Part shown: positions 47,566-64,000 of the stretch, one piece after another
Position numbering within the stretch: position 1 is the first letter of the stretch
Layout of the letters: every line of letters begins with the position of its first letter
Assembly (NCBI GenBank): GCA_965602015.1
Contig: OZ271918.1
Span: forward strand, 3,552,001-3,616,000
Source of the DNA: Salinispira sp.
GTDB lineage: Bacteria > Spirochaetota > Spirochaetia > DSM-27196 > Salinispiraceae
Reading direction: 5' to 3'
DNA: 64,000 nt
Notes under the pieces: model-generated
Told to the model about the DNA's origin: nothing
The model's input: the letters and a program-made list of their open reading frames with translations, nothing else
Databases searched by the model: none
Program-made: the position numbers and the translations under genes

Positions 47566-47602
47566 TATGGTGTTTTTGTCGGCATCGGCCCGCCCCCAGT
47601 GA

Positions 47603-47914: not shown

Positions 47915-47959
47915 GTTCCTCCTCTTGAAAGAATATTGCCGGATTTGTCATCCGGACAT

Positions 47960-47990: not shown

Positions 47991-48010
47991 CAAGGGTTCG
48001 GAATGCAGGG

Positions 48011-48109
48011 TCAACGTTCACCCGGAATCACCGCCCGACGCGAAAGAAAGAGAAAATCGGAATCATAGTCCATGGAAATGTCGACGCGGGTGTTCACGGG
48101 AAATATCAT
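48011..48109 (-). CDS. Putative leader peptide (32 aa, MIFPVNTRVDISMDYDSDFLFLSRRAVIPGER)
   Basis: Four Asp codons in nine; ATG 7 nt after TTGACC-N17-GATACT; ends 20 nt before the terminator. Confidence 0.55.
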   Translation of the reverse strand: MIFPVNTRVDISMDYDSDFLFLSRRAVIPGER

Positions 48110-48246
48110 AAACGCCAGTATCCTCCTGAACGCGGCGATGGTCAAGATCTGCATCGGCCGGCTTCGGCCCTTAAATCGCCATCCATGGCGATTTGCCCTC
48201 CAAGTATTCGGGCCAGGACTGCGCTTCAAGACCTTCGTTTAGACAC

Positions 48247-48280
48247 AAAAAAAGCAGATCGGTCTGTGGCCAATCTGCTT
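48247..48280 (-). terminator. Terminator downstream of tRNA-Leu 3' fragment A
   Basis: AAGCAGATTGG...CCGATCTGCTTTTTTT on minus strand. Confidence 0.7.
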
Positions 48281-48286
48281 CTTTGA

Positions 48287-48714
48287 TGCCCAGAAGAGGA
48301 CTTGGCCCTATGGTCGCTGACATCCTGTCAGCTCCCGCCGGGCCGCCTCCGTCGCTAAATTGGCATCCCTGCTATTTTGCGCTCGCAGCGCTCGCGCCGG
48401 AGACTGCGCGCAATGTCCGATGGACATGGCCCTCCACGGGGTTGGCCCTGGAAGCATGCTCGAGCAGGAAGCGAAGCTTCCGACCAGGGCCCACTATAAC
48501 CTGAAATATGTGCCTGTCCTTATGTTGTCCATATACAGCTATATACAGCTGCATACTGGGAGCTTATGTCGTCAGCTATCCATATATTGCTTATACGCTC
48601 ATATAAGCGAAAGCTCTTCGAGCTTTCGTACTCTGCGCTCACTCGGCAATGCCCAAGCAGGCATGGTCACTGCGCTCGTATCGCTTGAGTATAAAGGCGT
48701 CGATACTGGCGTCA
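48287..48714 (-). repeat. att-like junction A: tRNA-Leu(CAG) 3' half (with two palindromic insertions) + conserved arm
   Basis: Colinear with 50737-51056 and 59751-59926. Confidence 0.85.
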
Positions 48715-48718
48715 AAAA

Positions 48719-49033
48719 TCACGATGCCTTTGGGTGAATCTTTTTGTACTCATCCTGATGTTTTTCCTTCGCAATATCCAGATCATAGAGCGACTGTAGA
48801 TTGATCCAGTATTCTGCTGAAGTTCCGAAAAACCTGGAAAACCGAATTGCAGTATCAGCGGTAATCTTGCGCGTGCCATTGATAATTCTGGAAATTCTCA
48901 TTGGATCAACATCGATTCCTTTTGCCAATTCGTATGCAGTCACACCCATGGCATCAAGGAAATCTTCCTTTAGTACTTCTCCGGGAGTAGTCAGTTCAAT
49001 CAGCTCATCGCTGTACTCATTTTTTTCACCCAT
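48719..49033 (-). CDS. higA: HigA family antitoxin
   Basis: TPGEVLKEDFL, ITADTAIRFSRFFGTSAEYWINLQ..YDL. Confidence 0.92.
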   Translation of the reverse strand: MGEKNEYSDELIELTTPGEVLKEDFLDAMGVTAYELAKGIDVDPMRISRIINGTRKITADTAIRFSRFFGTSAEYWINLQSLYDLDIAKEKHQDEYKKIHPKAS

Positions 49034-49044
49034 ATCACAACACC

Positions 49045-49123
49045 TCAATGATAATCGCAAAATTCCACATCATATGCATGTCCATTTTCCCAGCGGAAGC
49101 ATATGCGCCATTGATCATTACGC
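49045..49123 (-). pseudogene. higB: HigB toxin C-terminal remnant
   Basis: Translates as RNDQWRICFRWENGHAYDVEFCDYH*; N-terminal two-thirds missing. Confidence 0.8.
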
Positions 49124-49236
49124 ATTATAGCTTCTCAGGCTAATAGCGTGAAGAGCTATTGTTGTCAATCATAGAGGAAAACTTACTGCATGTGTGTCTA
49201 GTCAAATTAGAAAAAATTCTGATATATTCCCCATCC

Positions 49237-50526
49237 ATGTCAAAAAACAGTTCCTACTCCCGCTACTCAACAAGCTTCAAACTCGCAGTAAATCTCGGTA
49301 TTGCCGATCAAGTGGAAATTACATCGCTTCCATCTTCAACCAGGCACAATTTCAGGAATGCCAATTTCACTGATATTGTCGGCAAAGAATATGAAGGGCT
49401 CACTATACGTCTTGAGGAAATTGAAGACATCCTCGATTATAGAACGGCAACAGCAGTAGCGTATTCTATTGCCAGGGTTGCATTCTTCATAAAACAGCTT
49501 GGTAAGAATGCTCACCGGCTGAAAAAGATAAAATCACCTCAAATCCGCGATACCTTCATTGATCTGATAGAACGCACAAAGGTATTCAAACCGGAGAAAC
49601 AGATTCTCAAGTTCTTTGATGTGACACCTCGGCGTTTCAGCCTCTGGAAGGCCAACCCTATCGGGTGCACCAGAGCACCCCGCTTTGAGTGTGTTGCATC
49701 TTATCCGACCCAGCTGACCAATAATGAAATTGCCAAAATCGTAAAAGTATTCCGGGATCCGATCAAATCTGCATGGTCTGCATTTGCAATAGCCGCAACT
49801 CTGGTTCGGGAGCGGATTGTCATCTCCAGCATCCCGACTATTTTGAGGTATGCCCGTGATCTGGGGCTGCATAAACGGAAAGTTAAAAAGAAGAAGCAGA
49901 GGCGCGGCAGCATTGAAGCTGAGGATGTGGATGAAGTATGGCACATGGATTTTACGCAGGTAAAATCCAAAGAGGGGATAGTTCATTATCTGCATATTCT
50001 GATTTATAATTAGCCACGCAAAATTCTGACCTGGCATCTGTACACCAAACTCAGAGCCCGGACTTCTCGCGTTGTCACGAAAAAGGCAATAGACCAGATG
50101 GCTGACAGAAAAAAGTCGGCTATGCCGGTTACCGACGGCGGAAGTGAATTCGATAATTTAATGATGCGGGCGAAATTGGCTGGAACAGGTTTGGAACTTA
50201 TAATTACCGGGAAGGATGTTGAGTTTTCCAGTTCAATGGTTGAGGCTGTATGCAAATCTCTGAAGTACCGGCATATCTTCCCTCGGGAAGTTTCGACGGC
50301 AAATCGGCTATGGGAAACATTGAATCATTATAGTGAGGAGTACACTTGTCGGCCCCATACAAAACTAAAAGGCCCAACTCCCATTGATTTTTATGCCGGA
50401 TATGAACTTGATGAAGAGCTGTACAAGCTTCTCATGTCGGATTCCCGAGAGAAACGGATTGCTGTTAATAAGAAATCTTGTCCACCGTGCCAGGTTGTTG
50501 TCAACACCGGTGTATCCATTCGATGA
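49237..50526 (+). pseudogene. DDE (rve) transposase pseudogene with in-frame TAG at 50011-50013
   Basis: WHMDFT, TDGGSEF, SMVEA in the same frame either side of the stop; short IRs TGTTGTCAA (49160) / TTGTCAACA (50498-50506). Confidence 0.8.
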
Positions 50527-50736
50527 GCCCGTAGTCGAGATCCAGGTATATAGAGGACAGGAAATTGATAATACCTGTAAAGCAGGTACGTGCAGTAAGG
50601 TGAAATCCGGAGGAGATTGTAGTTCATGCTCGGATTAAGATGGGTAGTTGGAAATTTACCTAATTTTTATACTGCAGGTATGGAGACGGAGAGTGTTCTA
50701 AAATTGGGACGAAAGGGAGATTATCGTTATGAATGT

Positions 50737-51056
50737 TGCCCGGCTGACATCCTGTCAACTCCCGTTGAGCCGCCTCCGTCGCTAAAATGGCATCCCTGCC
50801 ATTTTGCGCTCGCAGCGCTCGCGCCTGAGGCTGCGCGCAATGTCCGTTGGATATTGCCCTCCACGGGGTTGGCCATGGCAGCATGCCCGAGCAGGAAGCG
50901 AAGCTTCCGACCAGGGCCCACTAGAACCTGAATTATGTGCGTGTCCTTATGTGGTTCATATACAGCTGTATAGAGCCGCATAACAGGAGCTTGTGCCGTC
51001 GGCCATCTATATAGAGCTTTTGGGCTTATATAACAAAGGCGTCAATACTGGCGTCA
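50737..51056 (-). repeat. att-like junction B: tRNA-Leu 3' half (same insertions as A, acceptor/T-arm partly deleted) + arm
   Basis: High identity to junctions A and C. Confidence 0.85.
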
Positions 51057-51057
51057 T

Positions 51058-51309
51058 TTATTTGGCATAATGCTCAGTGTAATTATCGAGCACTTTTCTG
51101 ATGAGCTGTTGATATGGGATGTCATTTTTTTCAGCTGCATCCTTAAAAAAATCTACACTGCGCTTTGATAGTAGAATAGTGATTTTGCGAGTTTCTTCCT
51201 TAGCAATCAGCTGCTCCGGAGGAGGCAAAAAATCCTCAACTACCTCACCTTGCAGGATTGCATCCTGAATTTCCTCAGGGGCATCAGTGTAATGTATTTT
51301 GCTCTTCAT
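51058..51309 (-). CDS. BrnA/CopG-like antitoxin
   Basis: DFLPPPEQL, KITILLS..SVDFFK, PYQQLIR; coupled to BrnT. Confidence 0.8.
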   Translation of the reverse strand: MKSKIHYTDAPEEIQDAILQGEVVEDFLPPPEQLIAKEETRKITILLSKRSVDFFKDAAEKNDIPYQQLIRKVLDNYTEHYAK

Positions 51310-51565
51310 ATTTCTCTCTCCCTTGTCTCCAGAAACCAGCGCCGAAGATTCGGATATTTTGATTCCTCATGGTAAATCGTACTGTTACGATCCCGCCATT
51401 ATCCAATTGCCCTATACAGAAGAAGCGTTCCTCAGTTTGACTATGCTTATCATCCCGGACGATGATTCGATTCTGGTCAAAGAAAGCATATTGGGCATCG
51501 TTGAATGAGATGTTGTGCTTCTGCTGATTCTCAATATTCTTGTTTTCATCCCACTCAAATGTCAT
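51284..51565 (-). CDS. brnT: BrnT family toxin
   Basis: FEWDENKN..NQQKH.ISF, HSQTEERF, RFT.R, IRI. Confidence 0.9.
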   Translation of the reverse strand: MTFEWDENKNIENQQKHNISFNDAQYAFFDQNRIIVRDDKHSQTEERFFCIGQLDNGGIVTVRFTMRNQNIRIFGAGFWRQGREKYEEQNTLH

Positions 51566-51684
51566 ATTTCAAATATACCATATTTTTAGCCATATACCAA
51601 TATGGTTTGTATTGAAGGCTAATGCGATAGCATAAGGTAAGTCAGTAATTCGGAAAAAATTCTGAATTGGATTAATCTATAGGT

Positions 51685-52710
51685 ATGCTCGCCCTTCAAT
51701 TTAAAATTCTCATTACACTGTCTGAGGTTCTCTGCAAATCCAGGAAGGACCTCATTTTTACATTGCTTGTTTTACGAAAAGAAAATGCGAATCTCCGACG
51801 ACAAATCAGAGAGCGGAAAATCCGGGCCAACAGCAGAGACCGGAGGTTTCTATCTTTGATTGGATCAATATCAAAACGTGCCTTGTCACAGCTATCAATT
51901 GTGTCTCCTGCAACGCTTCTTGCCTGGCAGAAAATGATAATAGCAAAGCGCTGGAAATATAAGCAGCAAAAACCGGGCAGGAAATCGACCCCAAAAGATT
52001 TGAAGAAGCTTATTCTGGAGATGAAACAAGACAATCAGTTATGGGGATGCCAGAGGATCGCAGATGAGCTGAAGAAACTGGATATTGCCATTCATCATAC
52101 TACAGTAAATCGCATCATTCAAACATATAGAAAAGAGTGCAGAATTAAAGCCTCCGGAGCCTGGAGAAAATTCCTGAAGGCACATTAGAATTCGCTCTTC
52201 GCAATGGACTTCATGAGTTTAGATACTATTCTCGGGAAGAGATCGTACCTGTTTTTAATTCTGGAGCTGAAATCCAGGAGAATATGCCAATGGACTGTTA
52301 CCGAACATCCAACGATCGAATTCGTTAAGCAACAAATGATTTATTTCGAAGAATATTGACCTCCAGATGCTGTTCTCATTCACGATAACACCCCGCAATT
52401 TACCCTGGTCGATTTTTCTCTTTATGGCGTTATGTCAAAGAATATAGCTTTGGCAGCGCCGAATATGAATGCATATGTCGAACGAACATTCGGTTCAATC
52501 CGACGAGAATCACTGGATAACTTTCTAATATTCTCGGAAAAGCAGGTTCGAAAAATTCTGTCTGAGTACATTGAATACTATAATCACTTGCGGCCTCATC
52601 AGGGTATAGGTCGTATTCCTGATGGGGGAAGGGAAAAATGTTCTGGTGAGATCAAGAAAGTGCCTGTATTGTCTGGTTTGCACCATCATTATTATCGAAG
52701 CAGCTCATAA
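51685..52710 (+). pseudogene. Integrase-core transposase pseudogene (paralogue of 53572-54597) with internal stops at ~52186 and ~52357
   Basis: Colinear similarity (WGC.RIADEL, FAMDF, APNMNA..ER, RPHQGI, HHHYYRSS). Confidence 0.85.
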
Positions 52711-52818
52711 TATTTAAAAAGCTACGGCACAGGCGTCAAATCTCGTTCAAATATAGCGACTATAAATTACTCCGATCATCCTAAAACTAGCATAATCCAG
52801 CATCGGTATCAAGTGTAT

Positions 52819-53091
52819 TTATTGAACTGCTAAGTCTCTGAAATCCATGTTCAATGCCGCCATTGCTTTAAGATATGTATCGATATTGCAATTTTCACCA
52901 TTCTCAATTTTGCTGATCTGCTGTTGTGTGAGGTGCGCAATGCGAGCGGTTCCAGATTGGGATAACCCTTCATTTTCCCGCTTTCTCGCGATAGCAACGG
53001 CGAGATCGACTCTGAGTTTTTCCGCTTTTACCCTGCTATCAAGTTCCGGGTCGGATTGACGCAGACTCTCTTTAAAATCACTGAATTTCAT
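52819..53091 (-). CDS. XRE-type HTH antitoxin
   Basis: LSQ...A...TQQQISKIENG; overlaps the toxin stop. Confidence 0.85.
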   Translation of the reverse strand: MKFSDFKESLRQSDPELDSRVKAEKLRVDLAVAIARKRENEGLSQSGTARIAHLTQQQISKIENGENCNIDTYLKAMAALNMDFRDLAVQ

Positions 53092-53443
53092 TCTTCAACC
53101 TCTCTATATACTCAGACCTGATATTTTGGGCCCTCTTGATTTCTTTTTCAGGCACCTTTGAGGTATTCTTGATGAAGCGGTGGGTGAGCACAATGCGATT
53201 TTCAAGGATGAAGAAGTATAGAATACGTACCTGATTGTGAGCGACTTTGACTCGCAGTTCATGTATCCCATCCTTGAGAATGTCAGCATATGGTCGAGGC
53301 AGTAATGGACCTTCTTCCTGGAGCTTATCAATCCATGCCAAGACCTTATCACGATGCGACGGCTTGAGTTTTGTTAACCAATCTGCAAGCTCGCAGGAAC
53401 CATTCGTATCAGAATACAGCTCGATATCCCATCGTTTGTCCAC
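53078..53443 (-). CDS. RelE/ParE superfamily toxin (Gp49/DUF891-like)
   Basis: GPLLPRPYAD.L.DGIHELR, RILYFF, H.FIK.T.KVP..EI. Confidence 0.88.
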   Translation of the reverse strand: MDKRWDIELYSDTNGSCELADWLTKLKPSHRDKVLAWIDKLQEEGPLLPRPYADILKDGIHELRVKVAHNQVRILYFFILENRIVLTHRFIKNTSKVPEKEIKRAQNIRSEYIERLKNEIQ

Positions 53444-53495
53444 AAGTTAATTTACATCATAAAAGATGTGATTTCAATCGCTGAAAATCATAAAC

Positions 53496-54620
53496 GCGTG
53501 CTATAGTTTTTTTGACTGCAGACCTGTAATGCAGAAAATTTTCCTCATTCCGAATCTGCGATACTGAAAGTATGTTTCACTTCCTGATAAATCTCCTACG
53601 GGGAGTTCTGTTTCTATCTACTACAAAAAGAAAAGATTTGCTCTTTACTCTTTTGTTACTCCGGAAGGAGAATGAAATCTATCGACGTCATCTGAACCTT
53701 CGGAATGAAAGACTGCAAATGCGACGATCAGACCGGTTATCTCTCTCATTACTGTTGGGATTATCCAAGCGCGTAATTTCGCATCTGACAATTGTAAAAC
53801 CTCGGACACTGCTTGATTGGCAGCGTCAGTTCATCAAGAATTTCTGGACATATAAGCACAAGAAGTCCGGGAGAAAACCTGTTTCAGCAGAGATTAAAAA
53901 TCTGATCCTCGAAATGAAGCTGAATAACCAGATCTGGGGATGTCATCGAATCGCAGATGAACTCAATAAGCTTGAGATTAGACTACATCCGACAACCGTG
54001 AACAGAATCCTTCAAACTCATCGAAAGAACGGAAAGATTCAGTCGGTTGGAAGTTGGAGTAAGTTTCTGAAGATGCACTGGGATTCATTATTTGCCATGG
54101 ATTTCATGACTATTGATACGCTTTTCGGGAAACGACTCTACCTTTTCCTTGTCCTGCAGCTCAAAACCCGGAAGATTGCACACTGGAGTTTGACTGAGTA
54201 CCCGACCAGAGAATATGTGAAGCAGCAGTTGATTGATTTTTCTGAAAGGTATTCCCGTGCTTTGCTGATTCATGATAACGCACCACAGTTTTCAATCGAT
54301 TTTTCACTGTACGGTTTGAAGGGTAAAAACATAGCCATTGCCGCTCCGAATATGAATGCATTTGTCGAACGGGTTTTCGGCTCTGTTCGCAGAGAAGCGC
54401 TGGATCATTTTTTGATTATTTCAACGAAGCAGGTGCTGAATATTCTGAGAGAATACATTGAGTACTACAACTATCAACGCCCGCATCAGGGAATTGATCG
54501 GATTCCAGGTGCCGATAATGAAGTCGGGGACGGTGTAATCAGGAAAAATTCTGTATTATCCGGATTACACCATCATTATTATCGGAGTAGTGCTTAGCAG
54601 TTGAAAAAGCTATAGCACGC
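53496..54620 (+). mobile_element. Insertion sequence with 24-bp terminal IRs encoding an integrase-core (rve) transposase
   Basis: GCGTGCTATAGTTTTTTTGACTGC vs reverse complement of right end GCGTGCTATAGCTTTTTCAACTGC (21/24); no TSD seen. Confidence 0.75.
53572..54597 (+). CDS. Integrase core domain transposase
   Basis: DF...HDN...ER DDE triad, YN.QRPHQGI. Confidence 0.88.
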   Translation: MFHFLINLLRGVLFLSTTKRKDLLFTLLLLRKENEIYRRHLNLRNERLQMRRSDRLSLSLLLGLSKRVISHLTIVKPRTLLDWQRQFIKNFWTYKHKKSGRKPVSAEIKNLILEMKLNNQIWGCHRIADELNKLEIRLHPTTVNRILQTHRKNGKIQSVGSWSKFLKMHWDSLFAMDFMTIDTLFGKRLYLFLVLQLKTRKIAHWSLTEYPTREYVKQQLIDFSERYSRALLIHDNAPQFSIDFSLYGLKGKNIAIAAPNMNAFVERVFGSVRREALDHFLIISTKQVLNILREYIEYYNYQRPHQGIDRIPGADNEVGDGVIRKNSVLSGLHHHYYRSSA

Positions 54621-55990
54621 CAATAAACCAGCTCAATCATAGTCGCATTGTGTTGCATATCAATATTGCTTAATAAAGCTTGAATCTGATCATAGTCAAT
54701 TTGTGTAATCCTTTCTTCAGTCAGTGCTTCATCAGCATCTGAAGCAACAAGCTGGATATCTTCTCTTAAGTCAATTATTTCAACAAATTGGTTGTTCAAT
54801 CGCTCTCTATCAGCTTCCATTGTTTGAGCAAAAATCTCAGCATCTCGATGAATCTGTGAGATTGCATTTGTACTAATAGACTGCAGATTGAATATAATTT
54901 CATTGGATAGACGTTTCTCCTGCCTATCCTGAGGGCGTATTACAAGTGATAGGTTTAACACTGGATAAATATTACCCAATCCAGAATCTCGAATAAGCTC
55001 TGGAAATGTGTTGGCTAAACCAGGGGAGTTGCTGAGTAGCAAATCAGTAGAAAATGAAAGCGATGAGGTATTACCTGTATTTCCCTGGTATCTGGAATCG
55101 ATTAAGTATGTGATCTCCACCGATTGAATCCTGAGGTCATAAATGTTCTGCACCCCTGATCTGACAAGAGCCGTAGAAATATCAGAGGGAGTCCAGTCAC
55201 TTAACAGACCTAATACCACAGCGGTTACCTGATAGCTGGCATAAAACGTGACTGAAAGCTCGCGTAGAGTGTTTTCCTTTTCGAAAAGTTGGTTTTTTGA
55301 TTCTAGTAACTGCAGTCGGGTATTGATGAGATCTATTTCATTGATCTGACCTAACTCTGAGAGTCGATGGTTGTCGCTCAATCTACGCTCTGGTTGTTGA
55401 ACAGAGTTGCGGAGGGACTCAACCTCTACTGTTGCGAGTGAAAGATTCTTCCAGTCCGTAAGAAAATCAGTAAAGAAATTTGTTATCGCAATCTTTCTTT
55501 TCACCTCTGCCCGTTGAGCAAGGAGTTCAGAAAGTGGGAGATTGCTGCGTTCAACTGTAAATATTGGGGTAGAAATGCCAATGCCGACGCCGATCTGTTG
55601 AGATAGGCCTGGCTCAGATTGATTCAAGGCATCTGTGGCAGAAAGTTCATGGGATACCTGTGCTGTTATATTTCCACCATTGGGAGTGGGGCGTGAGAGC
55701 TGGTGTTGGTATGCCAGAGATAGTGGCAATTCCGTTGACCTGTCATTAAAGGCATTGGGTACCGACATATTTAGTATTGAGGGGGCTGAAAAAGCATACT
55801 GAAGTGTCTCCTTTCCTTTTTGGATTTCAGCCTCAGAAAGTGCAATATTGTATTCAAGTTCAATCGTCCGAATCTCCGGTGCATTTTGAAGAACAATGGT
55901 TAAAAGTTCTTCGATTGACCGATGGCTATCCTGCGCAAAACTAAAACTCGATATCAGGATTAAGAGAACAAGCGAAACGTTTTTGATCAT
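54539..55990 (-). CDS. TolC family outer membrane efflux protein (C-terminus supplied by IS sequence)
   Basis: Signal peptide, helical repeats (ELGQINEIDL), operon with HlyD and ABC; last ~24 codons lie inside the IS. Confidence 0.7.
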   Translation of the reverse strand: MIKNVSLVLLILISSFSFAQDSHRSIEELLTIVLQNAPEIRTIELEYNIALSEAEIQKGKETLQYAFSAPSILNMSVPNAFNDRSTELPLSLAYQHQLSRPTPNGGNITAQVSHELSATDALNQSEPGLSQQIGVGIGISTPIFTVERSNLPLSELLAQRAEVKRKIAITNFFTDFLTDWKNLSLATVEVESLRNSVQQPERRLSDNHRLSELGQINEIDLINTRLQLLESKNQLFEKENTLRELSVTFYASYQVTAVVLGLLSDWTPSDISTALVRSGVQNIYDLRIQSVEITYLIDSRYQGNTGNTSSLSFSTDLLLSNSPGLANTFPELIRDSGLGNIYPVLNLSLVIRPQDRQEKRLSNEIIFNLQSISTNAISQIHRDAEIFAQTMEADRERLNNQFVEIIDLREDIQLVASDADEALTEERITQIDYDQIQALLSNIDMQHNATMIELVYWRAIAFSTAKHYSDNNDGVIRIIQNFS

Positions 55991-57153
55991 GTGAGAAAAT
56001 CCAGCTTCTTCAATATTAGACGCAAAATTGTTGTTCGATCGGTTACAATCCTTGCTTCTGCTGCCATTCCAGCCCGCAGAGGAAATACCGTTCCTTCTCT
56101 GTTACTTACTTCATGAGCTGACAGATCAATTTGTGCTCGAAAAACTCTGTCGCCGTTGATATTCAGATCTGACTCGTTCGGAATGTAGGATAGGGTACCC
56201 TTTAACGATTGAAACTCAGAAACAGGAAAGCTCTCGAAACGGAGCACAACCTGCTGGCCAGTTTTAACAACACCGATGTCCTTTTGCTGGATAATAAGCT
56301 CTGCAGTAAAAGAGTCCAAATTTTCTGGAGTGATACGAATTAGCTCTTCATTAGAACCCACAATCTCACCAGGTGAGAATTCTTTAAGAAACTCCACGTT
56401 TCCAGTAATCGGTGCTGTGACTACAGACGCCTCCACATTTTCCAAAGTAGCTGTTTGTTCTTCCTGAAGTCTTGCTAATTGGGTTGAAAGATTCCGAATT
56501 TCAGATATCAGAAGAGCTTCATGTTTTGGGATGTACGCTTGTTTTTGGCTCTCCAGAGCTAAGTATGTGTATCGAAGTTGCTCAACTTCTGATGTGCTGC
56601 GCATTGCAGCCGGTAGCTGGTCGGCTTGAATCCATGCTAGACGCCCATTCTCGGTTTGAGCGGATAATTGGTTGAAAGAATAAAAAATTTCCTGGCTGCG
56701 AGCAAACGCGTAGGTGGATTGATGTGCCAGGTCAGGATTTCCTGCCTGTATCGCTGATAGAATTATTTGATTATCCGCGATGGTTTCCTCAATAGTTTGT
56801 ATCTCTTGGTTTATTCGCTGTAAGGAGGCGAGCAAAGATGTTGCTTCGATTGACCAAAGTAAATCGCCTTTTTGTACATAATCACCATTGTGGACGGCAC
56901 GTTCATTTATTCTTCCCTCCACTTCATTTTTAACCGTGATAATTTCTACTGTTGGACGAAGGATGGCCCTTGCTGGTACCCACTCATCAATCTCTCCGAA
57001 TAATGCCCAAATGAGTCCGATTGAGAAAATGGCGAGGATTGTGTACAGAAAAATAGTGCTGCCTGATTTGACATTCGTGGAGAAAAAGATGCTTGAATGT
57101 TTTAGCTTTTCTAATGGCAGTGTGTTGAATTTCAATTGAGGTACGCCTCCCAC
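55987..57153 (-). CDS. HlyD family secretion membrane fusion protein
   Basis: N-terminal TM, V.KGD.L, APITG.V, LRAGM.AEA.I. Confidence 0.9.
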   Translation of the reverse strand: MGGVPQLKFNTLPLEKLKHSSIFFSTNVKSGSTIFLYTILAIFSIGLIWALFGEIDEWVPARAILRPTVEIITVKNEVEGRINERAVHNGDYVQKGDLLWSIEATSLLASLQRINQEIQTIEETIADNQIILSAIQAGNPDLAHQSTYAFARSQEIFYSFNQLSAQTENGRLAWIQADQLPAAMRSTSEVEQLRYTYLALESQKQAYIPKHEALLISEIRNLSTQLARLQEEQTATLENVEASVVTAPITGNVEFLKEFSPGEIVGSNEELIRITPENLDSFTAELIIQQKDIGVVKTGQQVVLRFESFPVSEFQSLKGTLSYIPNESDLNINGDRVFRAQIDLSAHEVSNREGTVFPLRAGMAAEARIVTDRTTILRLILKKLDFLT

Positions 57154-59281
57154 AGTCGAGAGTATGTTTTACCTGCATTGATTAGTTCTTCATGAGTTCC
57201 AGACTCTTGAACTTCTCCATCTGCCAGGAGGATTATCTGGTCGCATTTATTGATTGAACTCAGTCGGTGGGCCACCATGATAATAGTCATCCCGGTGCGC
57301 TTTAATTCAGAAATCGTCTGATGCAGCTCAAATTCTGAGAATGCATCGAGATTACTGGTTGCCTCATCAAAAATGAGGATATCGGGCTTAGTAACCAATG
57401 CACGTGCAATGGCTATACGCTGCTTTTCCCCTCCAGATAATCCTCCACCTTGTTCTGATAGCTCGGTGTCGTAACGCTGAGGCAGCTCGGAAATAAAGGT
57501 ATGAGCACCACTTCGTTTTGCTGCCTCGATGATCTCCTCCGCGTCAGCTCCCGGGTTCCCAAATGCGATGTTCTCTCGGATCGTTCCACTAAACAGAAAA
57601 ATATCTTGATTGACATAGCCAATCTTCTGTCTGAGGTGTACGGGATCAATATCCTCGATATCAACCTCGTTTATGGAAATTTTTCCACTTTCAGCTTTGT
57701 AAAGCTTCATAATGAGTTTGATTAGAGAAGATTTTCCACTGCCACTTGAGCCGGCGATGCCTACCGTCGAACCACCATTAATTTTGAATGCAATCTTCTT
57801 GAGCACCGTTTTTTTGAGCCGTATCGAAAATCTACATCCCGAAAAACGATATCACCGGATAATTCTTTGGGTTTAATCAACCTTCGGGATTCATCAATTT
57901 CGGTTTCAATATCGAGTATTTCACCGACACGACGAGCGGCTACAAAAGCTTCTTGTAGATTGGGCTGAAGATGGATAAGGTTTTGAAGTGGTCCAAGAAA
58001 ATATCCAATGAGGGCATTGAAGCTTATAAGCTGACCGAGAGAAATTTGATTTCCAAGGATCAAGGTGCTGCCAATCCAAAACAGAAGGTTGCGCCCCCAA
58101 CCATCAATGAGCCCAACAAGAGATTTTTGAATTATACCCATTTTGCTAGCATGATAAACCGGCCATGTTCGCTTCATGATTTTACTTTCAGCCTTATGAT
58201 AACTCTCTACCTCAGCGACCTGAGCTTTTACTGTCGCCATACCAGAAACGGTTTCTACAAGATTTGCCTGACTTTCCGCGTGTCCACCAAGGATTTGTTG
58301 ATATTTTCTTTTGAATGGGCCAGCAAACCCCCATACTATACCTGCGGAGAATGGTACAAACAGCAGTGCTATAAAAAACAGTGTTAGATTTTGTACAGCC
58401 AGGACAATGCCGATGCCGACCACCATGATGGTATCAAAAAACACCGAGAAGGTGGCCGAGGAGAGTGCTTCACGTATTCTCACGGTGTCACTTAGGCGCG
58501 AGAGAATTTCTCCGACCTTCCGTGAATCAAAAAATGAAAGTGGAAGCTTAAATAAATGGCTCAGATATCCTAGACTGATTGATAAATCAACTTTCATGCT
58601 GAATCCCACAAGTAAGCGGGATCGCACGGCTTCAAGCAATACTTGAAGAAGGGTTACCAGCAAAACTCCGATGGAAACCACATTCAGAGTAAGTTGTGAT
58701 TCAGAGAATAAAATATCATCAACCAGTATTCTGAAGTACATGGCACCGGCTATCCCCATGACAGTGATGAGAAGGCTGGCAATTACGGTGTGAAGGATGG
58801 TTTTTTTATGTGGCTGCAGTAATGGAAGAAAACGCTGGAAGAGCCCGAGACTTTCAGAACCCCGCTTAAAATCTGCACTTGGCGAAATGAAGACAACATA
58901 TCCTGTCCAGAGCTTAAGGAAATCTTCGATAGGCGTTTTGATATTTCCATCTGCGGGGTCCGCATAAGTTACTGTTTTTTGTGTTATTTTAGTGACGACG
59001 ACAAAATGAAATAAGCCTTCTTTGCTCAGATGAGCGATAAACGGCGTTTCAAGATCAGGTGTGAGAGCCTCGGCATCACCTTTCAGGGCTTGTGCATCGA
59101 AACCAATCCGTTCAGCAGACTCGATTAACCCTTTTAAATTTGTACTGTTCTTATCCGTACCAGCCCATTCCCGTGCTTGGGTAAGCGAAATGCGCTTCCC
59201 GTGATAGTTGGCAATCATGGTAATGCAGGCTGGACCGCAATCTGAGGAATCAAACTGTTTAATAAGCTTTACTCGGGACAT
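57132..59281 (-). CDS. Peptidase C39-containing ABC transporter (PCAT), split by a frameshift at the T7 run 57809-57815
   Basis: QFDSSDCGPAC, HFVV, DP catalytic residues + TMD in ORF 57761-59281; NBD (GSSGSGKS, LSGGEKQR, DEATS) in ORF 57132-57806. Confidence 0.88.
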
Positions 59282-59559
59282 TATTGAGTCAAAACCTTTG
59301 AAATATGAGTTGCGAATTGTTGTTGATCTTCCCTGCTGGGGTTTAATCCATAGGCTTTTTTTATGGCTGATTCTAAACTGACAATTGCAGCAATGCTCCA
59401 GCCATATCTTTTTGCCTGGGCGTATGCTTCTACCGGCTTTATATACATTCCATTGTTTATTAGTACAGAGAGTGCAGTTTCGACTTTTTTTGAACTCCAG
59501 TTAGAATCTGGTGCGATCTTGTTTGGTACAGCAGAGTTCAAATATTCAATTAAGTCCAT
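59281..59559 (-). CDS. Hypothetical 92-aa protein translationally coupled (TAATG) to the PCAT
   Basis: Stop/start overlap; TATCAT-N5-ATG. Confidence 0.65.
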   Translation of the reverse strand: MDLIEYLNSAVPNKIAPDSNWSSKKVETALSVLINNGMYIKPVEAYAQAKRYGWSIAAIVSLESAIKKAYGLNPSREDQQQFATHISKVLTQ

Positions 59560-59652
59560 ATCTGATGATACATTGGAATTTCGTATTGGGTCAATGAATT
59601 GGTTTTATCCGGAAAAATTTCCACATTCCAGAAGCATATTTATAATTGAAAA

Positions 59653-59723
59653 GGCGTCAATACTGGCGTCAGTAGCCAATTGACGCCAATAAAAAAGGAG
59701 TTTGGCCAAATGACCAAACTCCT
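59653..59723. repeat. Distal arm of junction C: GGCGTCAATACTGGCGTCA, inverted TGACGCCA, and terminator hairpin AGGAGTTTGG/CCAAACTCCT
   Basis: Motif shared with 48696, 51038, 59908 and 62828. Confidence 0.75.
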
Positions 59724-59750
59724 AATCTCTTCCCCCGAAAGGGATTATGT

Positions 59751-59803
59751 TGCCCAGAAGAGGACTTGAACCTCCACGGGGTTGCCCCCACTAGAACCTG
59801 AAT
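59751..59803 (-). pseudogene. tRNA-Leu(CAG) 3' half (anticodon loop to discriminator), att core of junction C
   Basis: Minus strand ATTCAGGTTCTAGTGGGGGCAACCCCGTGGAGGTTCAAGTCCTCTTCTGGGCA: CAG loop, long variable arm, GTTCAA T-loop; 5' half absent. Confidence 0.9.
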
Positions 59804-60012
59804 TATGTGCATGTCCTTATGTTGTCCATATACAGCTGTATATAGCCGCATAACAGGAACTTATGTCGTCCCCCGTCCATATGAAGCTTCTGGGCTTATA
59901 TAATAATGGCATCAATACTGGCATCAGTGTTGTGCTTTTTGAAGTAAGCTTCAGTTCGTGCTAGCATATAATTAACTATATTTCGGGTCGCTTTATTTGA
60001 ACGAGGATATTA

Positions 60013-61962
60013 ATGGATTTTCGAGAAATAATGCAAAAACATGGACTAGCTAAGAGTTGGACCTACGAACCAGAACCAGATATTGATTTTGGGTACAAGG
60101 AGGGCCTGACCTGCTTAGACGCTGGATACACTGAGGCAAATGCTAAAGCCGTTGCGATGGCTATTATAGGTACCGCATTATTACGGCCAATGTGTGAGTA
60201 TGAAATCATTGAGCAAGAAGTTACATCCTTTGATCCATCGACTGGAAAATATTACACGGAAGTCAGTCGAAGTGACGAAAGCTCAGTGGGAAAAGCGACT
60301 GGAACCCTTGAGCAGATAATCATCCTCTGCTCGATTAGCTTTATAAAATGGCCTTTGAGAATGATGGACATTCCTTTCGCAGGTAGTATTAGTATCGGAT
60401 TATTTGCCAGGAGCGAATTAGCTGAAGTTGATGGTTTCTTTACGATTAAGTCAGGTAGAGTACTACCCTCTAAAAAGTGTAATCATCTTATAGGCGACCT
60501 TTCCGCCTGGCTTGGACAAGATAAAATCCAAAAATTTATGACCACCGTGCTTCCTGAGTATGCCGATGCCCCACCATTCTTTGACCTGAAGATCGTCTCA
60601 TATTCAATTGAGCCTCCTTTCTACATTATTGAGAACTCGAGAATGGATGATAATAATCTGTCTATTGAACAGAAGAGGATATATCAGTATTTCACCCAAT
60701 TATATAGCTGTGTTATCGGAAATTTCGAACAAGGGAGAGCTAATTTTCGAGAGCTTGAAGCTGAAGCGAAAACTCGACATCACACAAGGATTACCGCTTG
60801 GGAGTCGATGACTGATGCGCTCGATGGGATTGATCAAACTGAAGAATGGAAAGCATGGCGTGAGAATGGCCCTATTGAAAGCGAAACAAAAAGTACCTGG
60901 AAACGAACCAATGCTAAAGTCTTCCGGGGCCAGGTAACAAAGGGAGACATTGAACCAGATGATTGGTTTTGGTACGAGTATGAGTTTTCATACCAGGGTG
61001 AAAACGGACAAGTAGTCAAAGGTCGCTGGAAGCGACGAATCTTTCAGTTGATTGGTCCGGATAACGATTACCTCAAAGAACTCACGACTATAGACCACCA
61101 ATTTGAAATCTTGTATCGAATCGGGGAAATAAAACATTTCGCCATAGACTTTGAAACCAACTTCCGACATTTCCTGGAACAGCAGTATCTGGCAGGATCT
61201 GAACAATTCACATCGACCGGACTTCCTTCTCGCTTGGGTAATTTGATGCTTGAGTATGATCATAATGATGACAGGATAACGGTACGTTTTATTCAAGGTG
61301 AAGGGAAGAAAAATGATTTGATCAACTTCACCTGGACAATGATTGCATCCGGCTACAAAAATATATGCTTCTCATTTTCTGAAGACGCAAAGGTGGCGGG
61401 ATGGGGTCGTATGCATCCAATTGGATCATCGCTTGGGTTCGCTGCACTGAAGAAGTACCTTGAGTTGATCGGTGGAAGCTTTTCTGAAGAGTCAGAACTT
61501 TTTGATTTTGACTCAGTGTTGAATAAAGTAATTGAAGATACTCGTGCCGGCAGGTTCATTCGACCAGAAATCAATTGGGAAAATCCTGATGACTATATTC
61601 CAATGGGCCCTCGACCAGAACACTCTGTATCTGAAATACTCAAGCAGATTTATTTTGATTATGGGAAACTGGGCCAATTTATGTATTGGACGCTTTTTTT
61701 AAAACCAGAACCGGGTAGTGAAATATCAGGTTTTGTGGAGCTGCCAGCGTGTATAAATGATGAAGAAAAATTTTGGTATTCGATGTGTTATCTAAAACAC
61801 GGAGAAAACAAGCACCCTGACTTGGTTAAAGTATTGATAAGGGTTGTTCAAGATAACATAGATATAAATCCTTCAGAGGTGGCAAAAACAGTATTATCGG
61901 CAGATTATCCTGATCTGGAAAAAGCACGGGAAGAAATACGAAAACTAATCCAAGAAGACTAA
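60013..61962 (+). CDS. Hypothetical protein (649 aa)
   Basis: Long ORF with GAGG RBS; no family confidently recognised. Confidence 0.7.
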   Translation: MDFREIMQKHGLAKSWTYEPEPDIDFGYKEGLTCLDAGYTEANAKAVAMAIIGTALLRPMCEYEIIEQEVTSFDPSTGKYYTEVSRSDESSVGKATGTLEQIIILCSISFIKWPLRMMDIPFAGSISIGLFARSELAEVDGFFTIKSGRVLPSKKCNHLIGDLSAWLGQDKIQKFMTTVLPEYADAPPFFDLKIVSYSIEPPFYIIENSRMDDNNLSIEQKRIYQYFTQLYSCVIGNFEQGRANFRELEAEAKTRHHTRITAWESMTDALDGIDQTEEWKAWRENGPIESETKSTWKRTNAKVFRGQVTKGDIEPDDWFWYEYEFSYQGENGQVVKGRWKRRIFQLIGPDNDYLKELTTIDHQFEILYRIGEIKHFAIDFETNFRHFLEQQYLAGSEQFTSTGLPSRLGNLMLEYDHNDDRITVRFIQGEGKKNDLINFTWTMIASGYKNICFSFSEDAKVAGWGRMHPIGSSLGFAALKKYLELIGGSFSEESELFDFDSVLNKVIEDTRAGRFIRPEINWENPDDYIPMGPRPEHSVSEILKQIYFDYGKLGQFMYWTLFLKPEPGSEISGFVELPACINDEEKFWYSMCYLKHGENKHPDLVKVLIRVVQDNIDINPSEVAKTVLSADYPDLEKAREEIRKLIQED

Positions 61963-62077
61963 ACCACTATCCTCGTACTTTGGGTGACTTTTTTATCTTC
62001 GTCTGTTTACATTTTCTAAGTGGGGGGGCATTACCCGCCATAAAAGAGTAAGACCAATTCGACAAGTAGAATTAAAA

Positions 62078-62758
62078 TCAGTTTGATAAATAATCGATAT
62101 AATCATCAATGTCTTTGGTGATCATATACGTGAAATAGTATGATGGATCAGCAATGGGATTTTCAATTCTTATAATGATTGGAAATTCTAACAACGTATC
62201 GAAAGGTACTGTTACCATCCTTCCCCAGGGTAGATCTGACTCATCAATTTCATCTGAGTCTATTTCATTTTGTTCAGCCCTTTGAGCGTATATCCAGGCT
62301 TCATCAGCGTTCAACTTCAAAATATCTTGATATTGAACCACTTCATTTGCATCAAATATTGTAACGAGAAAATTCTGTGGATCAATGTACTCAAATGCTG
62401 TGGCCATGAGATCAAATGTTAGCTGTCCACCGAGAGGAAGCCAATCGAATTCTTCGATACCTGGTTTCGAGGCGCTTCCAATCAATTCATAGCCATCGAA
62501 TAAATTTTGCTGACTAGAAAATACAACATACGCATACCAGGGGCCGGTTTGAATGTCCTCACCAATTAAATAGGTGAAGAACACATCAGTGTCCGAGCTA
62601 AAGGATATTGCCAGCTGAAACTCATCAAGCCATGAATTGTAAATTGATTCAGAGGTTGTGCAGCTACTTAGTACAAATGCAACGATCATCATTATTATGA
62701 TCGAGCTTATATACCTGTGTGCTCGGAAAAAATCAATATGTGGCCGATGGCTTTTCAT
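62078..62758 (-). CDS. Hypothetical lipoprotein
   Basis: Hydrophobic signal + LSSC lipobox; AAGGA RBS. Confidence 0.7.
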   Translation of the reverse strand: MKSHRPHIDFFRAHRYISSIIIMMIVAFVLSSCTTSESIYNSWLDEFQLAISFSSDTDVFFTYLIGEDIQTGPWYAYVVFSSQQNLFDGYELIGSASKPGIEEFDWLPLGGQLTFDLMATAFEYIDPQNFLVTIFDANEVVQYQDILKLNADEAWIYAQRAEQNEIDSDEIDESDLPWGRMVTVPFDTLLEFPIIIRIENPIADPSYYFTYMITKDIDDYIDYLSN

Positions 62759-62827
62759 AACATTCCTTTGGGAAATATGTCGCGTTATTTAAGTATAAAT
62801 TGATTTTTGAACTCACGTGCAGATCAA

Positions 62828-62917
62828 GGCCTCAATGCTGGCGTAAGTCGAAAAATTATGCGACTAAAAAGGAGCCGGGCCATCTGACCAAACTATTATT
62901 CTCAGAGTAGTGCTTAG
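62828..62917. repeat. Degenerate distal arm D (motif + terminator remnant) abutting a 3' remnant of the rve IS
   Basis: GGCCTCAATGCTGGCGTAA...AAAAAGGAG...TGACCAAACT resembles 59653-59723; GAGTAGTGCTTAG matches the transposase end at 54585-54597. Confidence 0.6.
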
Positions 62918-63237
62918 TGAGTAAAAACCATAAGATGAGGCGCTGTCGCCCGATGCTGAAATCCTTTTTAGGCATCAGATTATGCACCTAACTATGCTTG
63001 TAGGGAGCTGGGAATGCGGAAATGTTTCTGCAATCGTTGTAGCCTCTCAAATTAAATTGATCAAACCAGCATAGAAAATCTCACAAACAGTTAAACAATC
63101 TCTCATTCCACTTAGACCGGAAATTTTATCTGCCGACAAAAAAAGAGCAATGGTGTTGAAGTTTGCCGACTCCCCATTGCTCTTAAAACCTCACCCCCAA
63201 AGGGGGCAAATAAACGTTACTTATTTGTCGGATAGTT

Positions 63238-63735
63238 TTGGAAAAACTTCAAGCGCTTGGGAAACAGTTCCACTGGAAAAAACCTGAATGTTGTCCCGAG
63301 TGTGGAAGCATACGGCTATGGGGGCACGGCTTCGTTCTTCGGCAGTTTGTCGGGTTTGCCCAAGGACTGTGGATGAAGCGGTATCGATGTCCGGACTGCC
63401 ATGGGGTTCATACCTGTAGGCCACAGCAGTTCTTGCCGGGGATGCAATATCCTGTTCAAACTCAAATCTCCAGCCTGGAAGCAAAGCTTGCAGGAAAGCC
63501 GTTCCTTCAAACTGTGTCGAGGCAGATCCAGCAGCATTGGTGGAAGACATTTCTCAACCACTGCCGCCGTAGCGGCAACTGGACTGCCCCACATTCGGTT
63601 TTCCTCCGCAGGCAGAGCGATGATCAAATACCAGTAACAACCAGGCGAATATACCGTGAGATCTGGTCAGAAGCCTGCGTACCCTACCTGCCTTTTGCGC
63701 TGACAGTGAAACCGCGTCCATTTAGCCTTGAGTGA
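63238..63735 (+). CDS. Zn-ribbon protein (DUF6431-like) preceding a transposase; start uncertain
   Basis: CPECG...HG..LR...RYRCPDC..HT..P..FLP..QY. Confidence 0.7.
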   Translation: MEKLQALGKQFHWKKPECCPECGSIRLWGHGFVLRQFVGFAQGLWMKRYRCPDCHGVHTCRPQQFLPGMQYPVQTQISSLEAKLAGKPFLQTVSRQIQQHWWKTFLNHCRRSGNWTAPHSVFLRRQSDDQIPVTTRRIYREIWSEACVPYLPFALTVKPRPFSLE

Positions 63736-63764
63736 GAAAACGTATCACTCTCAAGGAGGAGAAA

Positions 63765-64000
63765 ATGGACAGAGAAAAGAAAGAAAAGATCGCAGTATTC
63801 CGCTTCGGGGTCATCTTTCCGCTTGTGGAGAAAGACCTACACCAGTATTGGGGAGAGAAAGAGCGAATCCTGCGGGAGCTGGTCAGCAAGGAATGGGAGA
63901 TTCCCTTTTCAAACCGAAACTACATCAGCAAGGCCACCATCCTGACCTGGGTAAAGCGCTACGAAGATGGCGGGCGGAAGATTGAAGCCTTGTTTCCTGA
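63765..64000 (+). CDS. DDE integrase/Mu-like transposase, N-terminal part (runs off window end)
   Basis: AAGGAGG RBS; MDREKKEKIAVFRFGVIFPL...SKATILTWVKRYEDGG HTH. Confidence 0.75.
   Translation, partial: MDREKKEKIAVFRFGVIFPLVEKDLHQYWGEKERILRELVSKEWEIPFSNRNYISKATILTWVKRYEDGGRKIEALFP

Follow-up and report, generated by a model that had tools for sequence, protein, structure and literature searches.

A 51-kb tyrosine-integrase tandem array at a spirochaete tRNA-Leu(CAG) gene, with integrase-less segments that are most likely decayed remnants

The array and its segments

The window analysed here, a stretch of 64,000 nucleotides from Salinispira sp., contains at positions 48287..62917 the far end of a 51-kb array located at a single tRNA-Leu(CAG) gene. 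The array is marked by a 19-bp motif, GGCGTCAATACTGGCGTCA, which is found on the plus strand of the window (up to three mismatches allowed) at 48696 (one mismatch), 51038 (none), 59653 (none), 59908 (two), and 62828 (three); in 100 shuffles the expected chance count was zero. The genome scan proposed in the initial annotation was done as a regex search for the paired motif, and the whole 3.87-Mb genome was found to hold six copies, in one orientation and all within the array, the sixth at window-equivalent position 99131. Profiles of the arms that end in this motif gave no match in the genome outside the array. ARAGORN calls no tRNA within the window, and the three tRNA-Leu(CAG) copies present there, named A, B, and C, are therefore fragments. 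The intact gene had been expected beyond position 64000, and it is indeed present at window-equivalent 99230-99313 on the minus strand, 35 kb to the right of the window.

Arms flank segments 2 (51057-59652) and 3 (59927-62827) on either side, and neither segment contains a recombinase. In segment 1 the right-hand arm has been lost to an insertion sequence (IS). The segments carry from two to about 10 genes, on both strands and with IS copies included, and none was identified as a conjugation or mobilisation gene. Segment 1 encodes on the minus strand the antitoxin HigA (48719-49060; NCBIfam TIGR02607, 99.5 bits; Pfam HTH_3) and the last 24 codons of HigB (49048-49119), to which the HigB of the same-genus genome G002 matches at residues 69-92 only (tblastn). 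An IS copy on the plus strand follows (49159..50740). Its transposase is broken into ORFs of 284 and 142 aa, compared with 465 aa for the intact protein in G002, and on the right it runs up against the truncated copy B; both copy B and HigB have been truncated by IS elements.

Segment 2 begins with genes for a BrnA-like antitoxin and a BrnT toxin (51058..51565, minus strand; Pfam PF12441 and PF04365) that abut the motif. As first described, higA stops (48719) 4 bp from its motif copy and the BrnA-like gene (51058) 1 bp from its own. Next comes an IS remnant (51685..52738, plus strand) with transposase fragments at 51685-52188 and 52432-52710, after which the single GGCGTCA reported earlier as a half-motif is present at 52732. 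This site is probably a destroyed junction, and segment 2 is thus likely to be composite. A metagenome contig from a relative joins 48717 to 52742, a weak indication with a side of 28 nt. The remainder of the segment encodes an HTH antitoxin and a Gp49/HigB-like toxin (52819..53443, minus strand; Pfam PF01381 and PF05973), an IS3/IS481-like transposase of 341 aa with an rve_3 domain (53572..54597, plus strand), and an exporter assigned by Pfam (54539..59281, minus strand), consisting of an outer-membrane factor, an HlyD-type adaptor, and a C39-peptidase ABC exporter whose gene is split, with one ORF at 57132-57806 and another at 57761-59281. Segment 3 is 2.9 kb long, without IS or visible scar, and its cargo (60013..62758) is an ORF of 649 aa on the plus strand and one of 226 aa on the minus strand, neither of which matches a family in Pfam, NCBIfam, or PADLOC. 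Further to the right an IS starts on the plus strand (63238..64000) and continues to window-equivalent 65854; it encodes a DUF6431 protein, a DDE transposase, and an AAA ATPase (Pfam, NCBIfam).

Junctions, tRNA fragments and integrase genes

The segment boundaries are junctions of about 270 nt in which a P' arm, a tRNA core, and a P arm follow each other. One junction is complete (59653-59926) and two are partial (62828-62901 and 50743-51056). The P' arm of the complete junction (59653..59750, plus strand) contains the motif (59653-59671), an inverted heptamer (59681-59687), and a terminator in the tRNA sense (59696-59723), which lies on the minus strand, has a 12-bp stem, and is the top-scoring terminator match in the region. 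The core is copy C (59751-59803, minus strand), identical at 53 of 53 nt to nucleotides 32-84 of the intact tRNA-Leu(CAG), and P arm C (59804..59926, plus strand) ends in the motif at 59908-59926 (two mismatches). The P' arm beside the intact tRNA is 89% identical to the stretch 59649-59803. P arm B (50934..51056, plus strand) ends in a perfect motif (51038-51056), and P arm A (48506..48714, plus strand) in one with a single mismatch (48696-48714). Arms B and C, of 105 nt each, are 87% identical, and the three P arms differ by 12-19%. The claim of a shared arm ending in the motif thus holds for all three copies, with about 85 extra nucleotides in arm A. A motif followed by a terminator had also been said to close segments at two places; this is so at 59653, while the truncated P' arm at 62828..62901 (plus strand) retains a degenerate motif with three mismatches and a terminator remnant, with neither core nor P arm following on the right. 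The P'-core-P hybrids between the segments support the proposed tandem integration at tRNA-Leu(CAG) leaving attP-like junctions.

Copy A (48287..48505) is the outermost attR core, that is, the displaced 3' part of tRNA-Leu(CAG), which starts at the anticodon loop and includes the 3' end. It is interrupted by a repeat unit (48284-48423) and by a palindromic insert of about 44 nt (about 48445-48488). Copy B (50743..50933) is interrupted in the same way and is 88-91% identical to copy A, its 3' end missing where the IS end abuts. In both, a structured repeat unit of about 125 nt lies in the T-arm region and the palindromic insert in the variable arm. Of the three tRNA 3' halves initially described, all are fragments that meet the arm at the anticodon loop; A and B are however not plain halves. 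All three fragments are on the minus strand. That A and B have the same interrupted core and yet are only 88-91% identical is not explained by simple serial integration.

A remnant of a native tRNA-linked repeat unit is also present in the flanking chromosome, downstream of where the displaced tRNA ends (48126..48238, minus strand), matched by covariance model R1 (G000:C1:3600126-3600238) and by nhmmer, and it is homologous to units behind tRNA-Leu(CAG) in G002. Such tRNA-linked repeats resemble those known as RtT in E. coli, where tyrT has repeats of 178 bp: the units contain no genes, lie behind tRNA genes, are often in tandem, and each closes with a repeat of the tRNA 3' end. The spirochaete unit differs in that it has no match in Rfam, RF00391 (RtT) included, at E<=1 (region 47500-64000 and 10 unit loci), and folds into a conserved structure of its own with 30 pairs. 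It is present in 55 of 99 genomes of the host's order.

A search for a cognate integrase to the right of the window had been proposed, and an intact tyrosine integrase of 391 aa is encoded in the tRNA-proximal part of the array at window-equivalent 96191-97366, 1.9 kb from the intact tRNA (Pfam PF00589, E 7.5e-21). At E<=0.001 the genome encodes no other protein of its family. The full-length proteins of this family are of about 380 aa, and 163 representatives were found at E<=1e-30, the best with 64% identity. When metagenome loci were fetched through similarity to the integrase protein alone, the motif was present in four of seven. A second integrase gene has been deleted except for a remnant at 62910..63035 (minus strand), which is fused to the truncated P' arm and comprises the upstream region with promoter and about 12 codons, the start codon being changed (tblastn against the integrase, E 0.015). 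It is homologous to the 5' region of the intact gene over about 110 nt with about 85% identity as read by eye, the alignment tool giving 73% over the whole 214 columns. The statement that the segments have no recombinase is accordingly right for the ORFs of 48287-62917, in which Pfam detects none, and has to be qualified by this remnant. Within segments 1, 2, and 3 no integrase remnant was found, since a tblastn search at E<=20 returned the remnant at 62.9 kb and noise alone.

Related arrays and known systems

The arms and the motif recur in conserved form from genus to genus among the spirochaetes, at tRNA-Leu(CAG), tRNA-Leu(GAG), and tRNA-Met. The motif is near-invariant. The tRNA-derived core varies with the target, its length being 53 nt at Leu(CAG) and 21 nt at Met. 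Six of the 24 spirochaete loci fetched with the motif have arrays with two to four copies, and complete junctions recur. No Phage_integrase domain was detected among 140 ORFs (of at least 70 aa) in eight loci, and the cargo there includes AbiH, Shedu SduA, an OLD-type ATPase, PLD, MNT, HicB, and BrnA. In several integrase-less array segments an antitoxin gene adjoins the arm motif; at locus L111 the HTH antitoxin and Gp49/HigB-like toxin pair known here from 52819..53443 adjoins a P arm. G002 has one HigBA/GNAT segment of 3.2 kb with both arms and no integrase within the 28 kb annotated around it, and no close full-length integrase was found in five other array-bearing genomes. Integrase fragments beside the junctions of other arrays end at residues about 40, 57, 76, 98, 119, 145, and 151. 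The metagenome locus L131, one of the four with the motif among those fetched by integrase similarity, has an 8.6-kb element in the order tRNA-Leu(CAG), P' motif, full-length integrase (67% identity), BrnTA, and motif. The BrnTA and motif side of segment 2 is colinear with the end of this element, with a tblastx match of 69% across 101 aa counted from the motif. IS copies are frequent in and beside the arrays here and in L045. Salt-marsh metagenome contigs, 90-95% alike, give weak indications of other segment orders (sides of 24-43 nt). The public data of the isolate are assembled contigs, which break at the repeated arms. They contain no joints and no excision products, which data of this kind could not reveal.

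In integrons and chromosomal superintegrons, small segments that often carry toxin-antitoxin or defence genes are arrayed with a repeated recombination site between them, and the spirochaete array shares these traits. It differs from them in having neither IntI, attI, attC, nor Pc, and in having multi-gene segments of 2-9 kb and tRNA-derived attP-like junctions. The boundaries are P'-core-P stretches of about 270 nt rather than the short imperfect inverted repeats of attC, and the genes are on both strands with IS included, not promoterless cassettes in one orientation behind Pc. Integron-integrase models gave no match to the 391-aa integrase, and a 302-aa recombinase at window-equivalent 79674-80582 reached 88 bits with TIGR02249 (cut-off 265) and 32 with NF011946 (cut-off 435). 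The intact tRNA at one end, the direct 3' repeats at the boundaries, the linked integrase, and the hybrid junctions are instead those of an accretion array.

CIMEs and tandem accretion are reportedly treated by Pavlovic 2004 and Bellanger 2011 for ICESt1/CIME of Streptococcus thermophilus. In a review, elements at gene 3' ends are described as decaying and losing their integration genes while keeping attL and attR. A newcomer that enters the att site produces a tandem whose att sites are hybrids, and capture of genes as well as mobilisation in cis are considered possible (PMC5704250). In sequence, segments 2 and 3 resemble these in retaining att sites on both sides without a recombinase and in the tandem hybrid att sites; they differ in the spirochaete host, the private 19-bp direct-repeat arm motif, and in that no conjugation or mobilisation genes were identified. 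Several Dehalococcoides islands are found in tandem downstream of the small-RNA gene ssrA, split by direct repeats of its 3' end; some have an integration module and others do not, the latter being suggested by the authors to be mobilisable in cis (PMC3146451). The Dehalococcoides recombinase is of the serine type and the repeat 20 bp long, whereas the spirochaete array has a tyrosine integrase, a 53-nt core, and long arms. In the Prochlorococcus tycheposon islands, newcomers push older elements inward, and broken integrases and additional partial tRNAs are dispersed over the island (10.1101/2020.12.28.424599); compared by island layout, the tandem build-up, fragmented integrases, and partial tRNAs are similar.

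Probable tandem accretion with decay, and its alternatives

The tRNA-Leu(CAG) fragments and arms are most likely the junctions of a tyrosine-integrase tandem array, in which the integrase-less segments would be decayed CIME-like remnants. This reading is based on the integrase remnant, the IS cuts, the split ABC exporter gene, the L131 element, and the integrase fragments in relatives. Its mechanism follows established tyrosine-integrase biology. The attP of an incoming element would consist of a P arm (about 105 nt) with GGCGTCA-N5-GGCGTCA at its end, a core that duplicates the 3' part of the tRNA starting at the anticodon loop, and a P' arm with the terminator and the same motif. Integration would rebuild the tRNA from the element's copy and displace older elements from the gene, so that serial integration would leave P'-core-P hybrids between the elements and a terminal attR, copy A. 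The N-terminal domain of the integrase probably binds the GGCGTCA repeats, other integrases were probably removed by deletions and IS activity, and the toxin-antitoxin pairs against the P-arm motif might help those ends persist. The remnants could be movable in cis or trans by the surviving integrase.

The initial annotation named decayed islands with deleted integrases as the outcome that would count against its own proposal, and this is in part what was found: the remnant at 62910-63035, the IS truncations, the colinear L131 end, and the integrase fragments elsewhere. For segments 1, 2, and 3 taken together, and not segment by segment, decay is suggested by the IS scars and the homology at one end. 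Against it stand the lack of IS or scar in segment 3 and of any integrase remnant inside segments 1-3. Integrase-less segments with both arms are also common elsewhere, and a near-perfect motif across genera would fit sites still in use.

In the integron-like capture platform first proposed, one integrase would insert, excise, and reshuffle non-autonomous cassettes in cis or trans through the conserved P'-core-P junctions, and the array would serve as a reservoir, in active use, of toxin-antitoxin and defence genes. The recurring multi-copy arrays and complete junctions, the absence of integrase domains from the 140 ORFs, the abundance of toxin-antitoxin and defence genes, the near-invariant motif, P arms as far apart as separate acquisitions would give, and, weakly, the salt-marsh segment orders would all agree with it. 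We nevertheless regard it as unlikely. The integrase remnant here and the fragments in other arrays point to integrase-less segments arising by deletion, IS scars are found at several boundaries, and in the five array genomes without a close full-length integrase the trans-acting enzyme is missing. The ordinary attP-like hybrids, the genes on both strands, and the absence of an IntI-type integrase, attC sites, and co-oriented promoterless cassettes also speak against the original description of purpose-built cassettes stacked in trans. Junctions might alternatively have spread by homologous recombination, segmental duplication, or IS rearrangement, the arms being kept for signals useful to the host such as the terminator and promoter-like boxes. 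The private insertions shared by copies A and B do look as if an existing junction had been copied, the P' arm has a strong terminator, and IS copies are many. This is nonetheless highly improbable, as every junction has the exact parts of attP x attB products, the core varies with the target tRNA, the arms are linked to one integrase family, and a 9-12% divergence between A and B argues against recent duplication. A broader proposal, that spirochaete tRNA-Leu and tRNA-Met genes anchor working arrays in which one integrase family, in cis or in trans, reshuffles toxin-antitoxin-anchored, integrase-less segments through the conserved ~270-nt junction, with additional 3'-end copies in the repeat units serving as safe landing sites that protect the essential tRNA, is doubtful.

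Integrase loss from tandem islands, as in the accretion and decay preferred here, is a known route by which toxin-antitoxin and defence genes accumulate in genomes. What is new is the element family, with its arms and motif across spirochaete genera at three tRNA targets and its recurring integrase-less arrays. The locus provides a well-resolved case, in a little-studied phylum, of a tRNA hotspot turned into a 51-kb island through serial integration and decay. A widespread and uncatalogued structured repeat behind spirochaete tRNA genes emerged as a by-product, and it may interact with integration. The integrative-element family is defined by an unusually well-conserved arm motif at three different tRNA targets, and this conservation makes arm-site recognition, and the mobilisation of integrase-less remnants in cis and in trans, easily testable.

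Junctions and layout of the array

The source genome is a single contig of 3.87 Mb. In the window the motif GGCGTCAATACTGGCGTCA is found at 48696, 51038, 59653, 59908 and 62828 (1, 0, 0, 2 and 3 mismatches, respectively), always on the plus strand, while no copy is expected by chance. Genome-wide, the paired motif occurs only in the array, including one further copy at 99131 when the window numbering is continued beyond 64000. The motif closes the P arm of about 105 nt and, together with a terminator, makes up the P' arm; profiles of both arms match nothing in the genome outside the array and reveal no additional junctions between 62.9 and 99.1 kb. ARAGORN and Rfam call nothing in the window, as the pieces of the tRNA are either too short or too heavily interrupted. 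As the initial annotation had predicted, an intact tRNA-Leu(CAG) lies further to the right, and ARAGORN places it at 3651230-3651313 of the genome (window-equivalent 99230-99313, complement strand). A second ARAGORN 'tRNA-Leu(cag)' of 89 nt, at 3184690-3184778 of the genome, has no similarity to the real gene and looks spurious; if it is, the array sits at the genome's sole tRNA-Leu(CAG) gene.

The association of the motif with tRNA junctions noted from the sequence was confirmed. Copy C (59751-59803) is identical in 53 of 53 positions to nucleotides 32-84 of the intact tRNA, from the anticodon loop to the 3' end, and the 100 nt 3' of the intact tRNA, comprising terminator and motif, are 89% identical to 59649-59750. 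Copies A (48287-48505) and B (50743-50933) also have their junctions at the anticodon loop, but they are not the plain 3' halves they had been taken for. Their lengths of 219 and 191 nt are due to two interruptions in each: a GC-rich unit of about 125 nt in the T-arm region and a palindromic insert of about 44 nt in the variable arm. The latter is REP-like (about 48445-48488 in copy A and 50872-50915 in copy B) and has relatives in a tandem array with a 43-bp period at 1800538-1800879 and 1805741-1805782 of the genome. Copy B lacks its 3' end, where it meets the end of an IS; an intact relative of this IS, in a genome of the same genus (G002), encodes a 465-aa transposase. P arm A carries about 85 nt extra, and the motif copy at 62828 belongs to a degenerate half junction.

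Read in the sense of the tRNA, from right to left, the intact gene is followed by a P' arm with the motif at 99131 and by a 36-kb block containing an intact tyrosine integrase, DNA-modification genes, a Xer-like recombinase and IS copies. Then come a truncated P' arm (62901-62828), segment 3 with two unknown genes, and a junction of P arm, core C and P' arm (59926-59653), core denoting the tRNA-derived part. Segment 2 encodes a C39-ABC/HlyD/OEP exporter, an IS, a Gp49/HTH toxin-antitoxin pair, an IS remnant and BrnT/BrnA. It is followed by a P arm with core B (51056-50743), a broken IS, a HigB stub and HigA, a P arm with core A (48714-48287), and finally the native terminator and chromosomal flank. 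Homologous sequence follows the tRNA in G002, so this flank, which lies to the left of copy A, is native downstream DNA.

This is the layout that a tyrosine integrase would produce by serial attP x attB integration, namely an attL at the tRNA, attP-like hybrids between the elements and a single terminal attR. Serial integration into the tRNA is not enough to explain the core of copy B, which is interrupted as in copy A, yet only 88-91% identical to it. It could stem from a junction imported from a related strain or from arrays recombining with one another.

Some further features were noted in and beside the array. A three-gene IS (DUF6431 protein, DDE transposase, AAA_22 ATPase) extends from 63238 through 64000 to window-equivalent 65854, and an IS of the same composition also flanks an att array in an unrelated spirochaete MAG (L045, 301-3036). 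An inverted repeat of 26 nt with 85% complementarity is located immediately within two segment boundaries, at 52742-52767 after a half motif at 52732 and at 59980-60005 after P arm C. The C39-peptidase ABC exporter gene (57132-59281) is broken up into two ORFs, of 506 and 224 aa, that overlap; a frameshift is the probable cause, and this bacteriocin-type exporter may thus be dead.

The integrase and related loci

The integrase search to the right of the window that the initial annotation had suggested identified the intact 391-aa enzyme at window-equivalent 96191-97366 (PF00589). A neighbouring ORF of 63 aa (window-equivalent 97354-97545) is a candidate directionality factor. At E<=0.001 the genome encodes no other member of the integrase's family, which is made up of ordinary enzymes of about 380 aa, with 163 representatives at E<=1e-30, the best of them at 64% identity. 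No close relative is found among 60 related genomes, where the best match is 31% identical, and a search of genome contigs for related loci with the integrase as sole query gave no relative. Metagenomes were scanned with alignments of the integrase; an alignment built from nine sequences was too diverse, and one built from three worked. Four of the seven metagenome loci fetched by integrase similarity alone contain the motif. One of them, L131, holds an 8.6-kb element composed of tRNA-Leu(CAG), terminator, repeat unit, P' motif, a full-length integrase (67% identity), BrnT/BrnA and the motif. By this association the integrase family is linked to these att sites, and its N-terminal domain may bind the GGCGTCA heptamers. 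A 'suicidal' integrase of the SSV type, split by its own att site, was rejected because the integrated copies are full length both here and in L131.

With one genome per species, the exact motif is found at 80 loci, 25 of which (24 distinct) are in spirochaete records. It adjoins a minus-strand tRNA in 16 of these 24, namely Leu(CAG) in eight, Leu(GAG) in three and Met in five, and six of the 24 have two to four copies. At the remaining loci, about 55, all non-spirochaete, the match covers only the approximately 20-30 nt of the motif itself, and they were set aside as chance or unrelated. Used as a DNA query against 99 genomes of the order, the P arm matches the source genome and G002 only. 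The literature searches yielded no account of the spirochaete arrays.

A repeat unit linked to tRNA genes

The GC-rich insert in copies A and B belongs to a family of 15 copies in the source genome (loci L137-L147). Every copy directly follows the terminator of a gene for a tRNA or tmRNA, or of what is left of a tRNA-Leu(CAG), and has the same orientation as that gene or remnant. Three copies belong to the Leu-CAG array (48284-48423, 50702-50850 and 48126-48238), three to Leu-TAA and two to Leu-GAG, while Arg-TCT, Pro-CGG, Gly-CCC, Val-TAC, tmRNA and each of two Met loci have one. The unit is about 135 nt long and has its own terminator; it starts with the reverse complement of the T arm of the tRNA, and its end repeats roughly the last 18 nt of that tRNA. 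Tandems are frequent, with a period of about 185 bp. The fold derived from 18 sequences has 30 pairs and is 89% paired, and 19 of the pairs show compensatory changes; none of 500 shuffles reached it, and the values for slid controls were 28-44%. According to a covariance model, 55 of the 99 genomes examined for the order contain the unit, as do 22 of 26 genera, and a genome can have up to 27 copies. The unit has no match in Rfam, and no description of it was found in the literature. Roles as a CsrA-sponge RNA or a guide-RNA-like molecule were considered and set aside; some loop variants lack GGA.

In G002 (L028) and in L131 (4426-4565) the P' arm begins right after the tRNA-like 3' end of the unit and not after the tRNA, and in five other loci (L050, L073, L076, L080 and L099) the tRNA and the P' motif are separated by a unit. 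These arrangements suggest that the unit may serve as an alternative landing site, that is, a second attachment site.

Probable decay of the elements and possible mobility of the segments

The initial annotation had interpreted the array as an integron-like platform of integrase-less cassettes. Several findings point to decay. The minus strand at 62910-63035 aligns with the upstream region and the first 12 or so codons of the intact integrase gene over roughly 110 nt, at about 85% identity as read from the alignment; its start codon is changed and it runs straight into the truncated P' arm, indicating that a deletion took the remainder of a second integrase gene, along with its P arm and core. 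Of HigB only the last 24 codons are left, adjoining the broken IS copy that the truncated copy B abuts. After an IS remnant in segment 2 comes a lone GGCGTCA at 52732, and in a metagenome contig an arm motif is joined directly to 52742, although this joint is weak; segment 2 is thus probably two segments whose junction has been destroyed. BrnA/BrnT abut the motif alike here and in L131 (69% over 101 aa), where an integrase-bearing element ends with them. Integrase fragments in other arrays break off near junctions, at about residues 40, 57, 76, 98, 119, 145 and 151, and one genome has an integrase copy with internal stops. An array on contig C2 of genome G099, with four junctions at 631.9-653.4 kb, has three N-terminal integrase-family fragments (L127-L129; 647233-647673, 651979-652416 and 672375-672869). 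Two of them break at the same residue, about 145, so part of that array has probably been duplicated.

Other observations favour segments that are still mobile. No integrase remnant was found inside segments 1-3, and no scar is visible in segment 3. Complete P'-core-P junctions recur, and the core follows the target, with 53 nt at Leu(CAG) and, at Met, the 21 nt that extend from T loop to 3' end. None of 140 ORFs of at least 70 aa in eight spirochaete motif loci has an integrase domain; their cargo includes defence genes (AbiH, Shedu SduA, OLD-type ATPase, PLD, RHS) and parts of toxin-antitoxin systems (MNT, HicB, BrnA, Gp49/HTH). G002 has a single 3.2-kb HigBA/GNAT segment with both arms, 80-85% identical to those of the source genome, and no integrase in the region. 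The P-arm motif is in several cases adjoined by an antitoxin gene: HigA and BrnA in the window, as well as an HTH gene after the half motif, and elsewhere HigA (G002), BrnA (L131) and HTH/Gp49 (L111); in L109, by our own coordinate conversion, HicB and an HTH gene adjoin motifs. Such ends may be addiction modules guarding that end from deletion, which would explain why ends made up of arm and antitoxin have outlived the integrase. Taken together, these observations lend some weight to a reading in which the remnants can still be mobilised, in cis or in trans; we judge it unlikely.

Salt-marsh metagenome contigs, 90-95% alike, join 48717 to 52742, 51605 to 49239 and 50659 to 59649, with short sides of 24-43 nt. 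They hint weakly that relatives have the segments in other orders (the HTH/Gp49 pair after an arm; BrnTA, IS, then P' arm). The public runs of the isolate consist of contigs only, which break at the repeated arms and contain no such joints.

An integron has an IntI-type enzyme and attC sites; here there are neither, model scores for the former being far below the cut-offs, and the segments carry several genes on both strands. The mechanism is most likely the known one of tandem accretion and decay and not a new integron-like platform. What is new, and of moderate interest, lies in the details: the element family, its arm motif, which is conserved at three tRNA targets, and a possible interplay between the elements and the tRNA-linked units.
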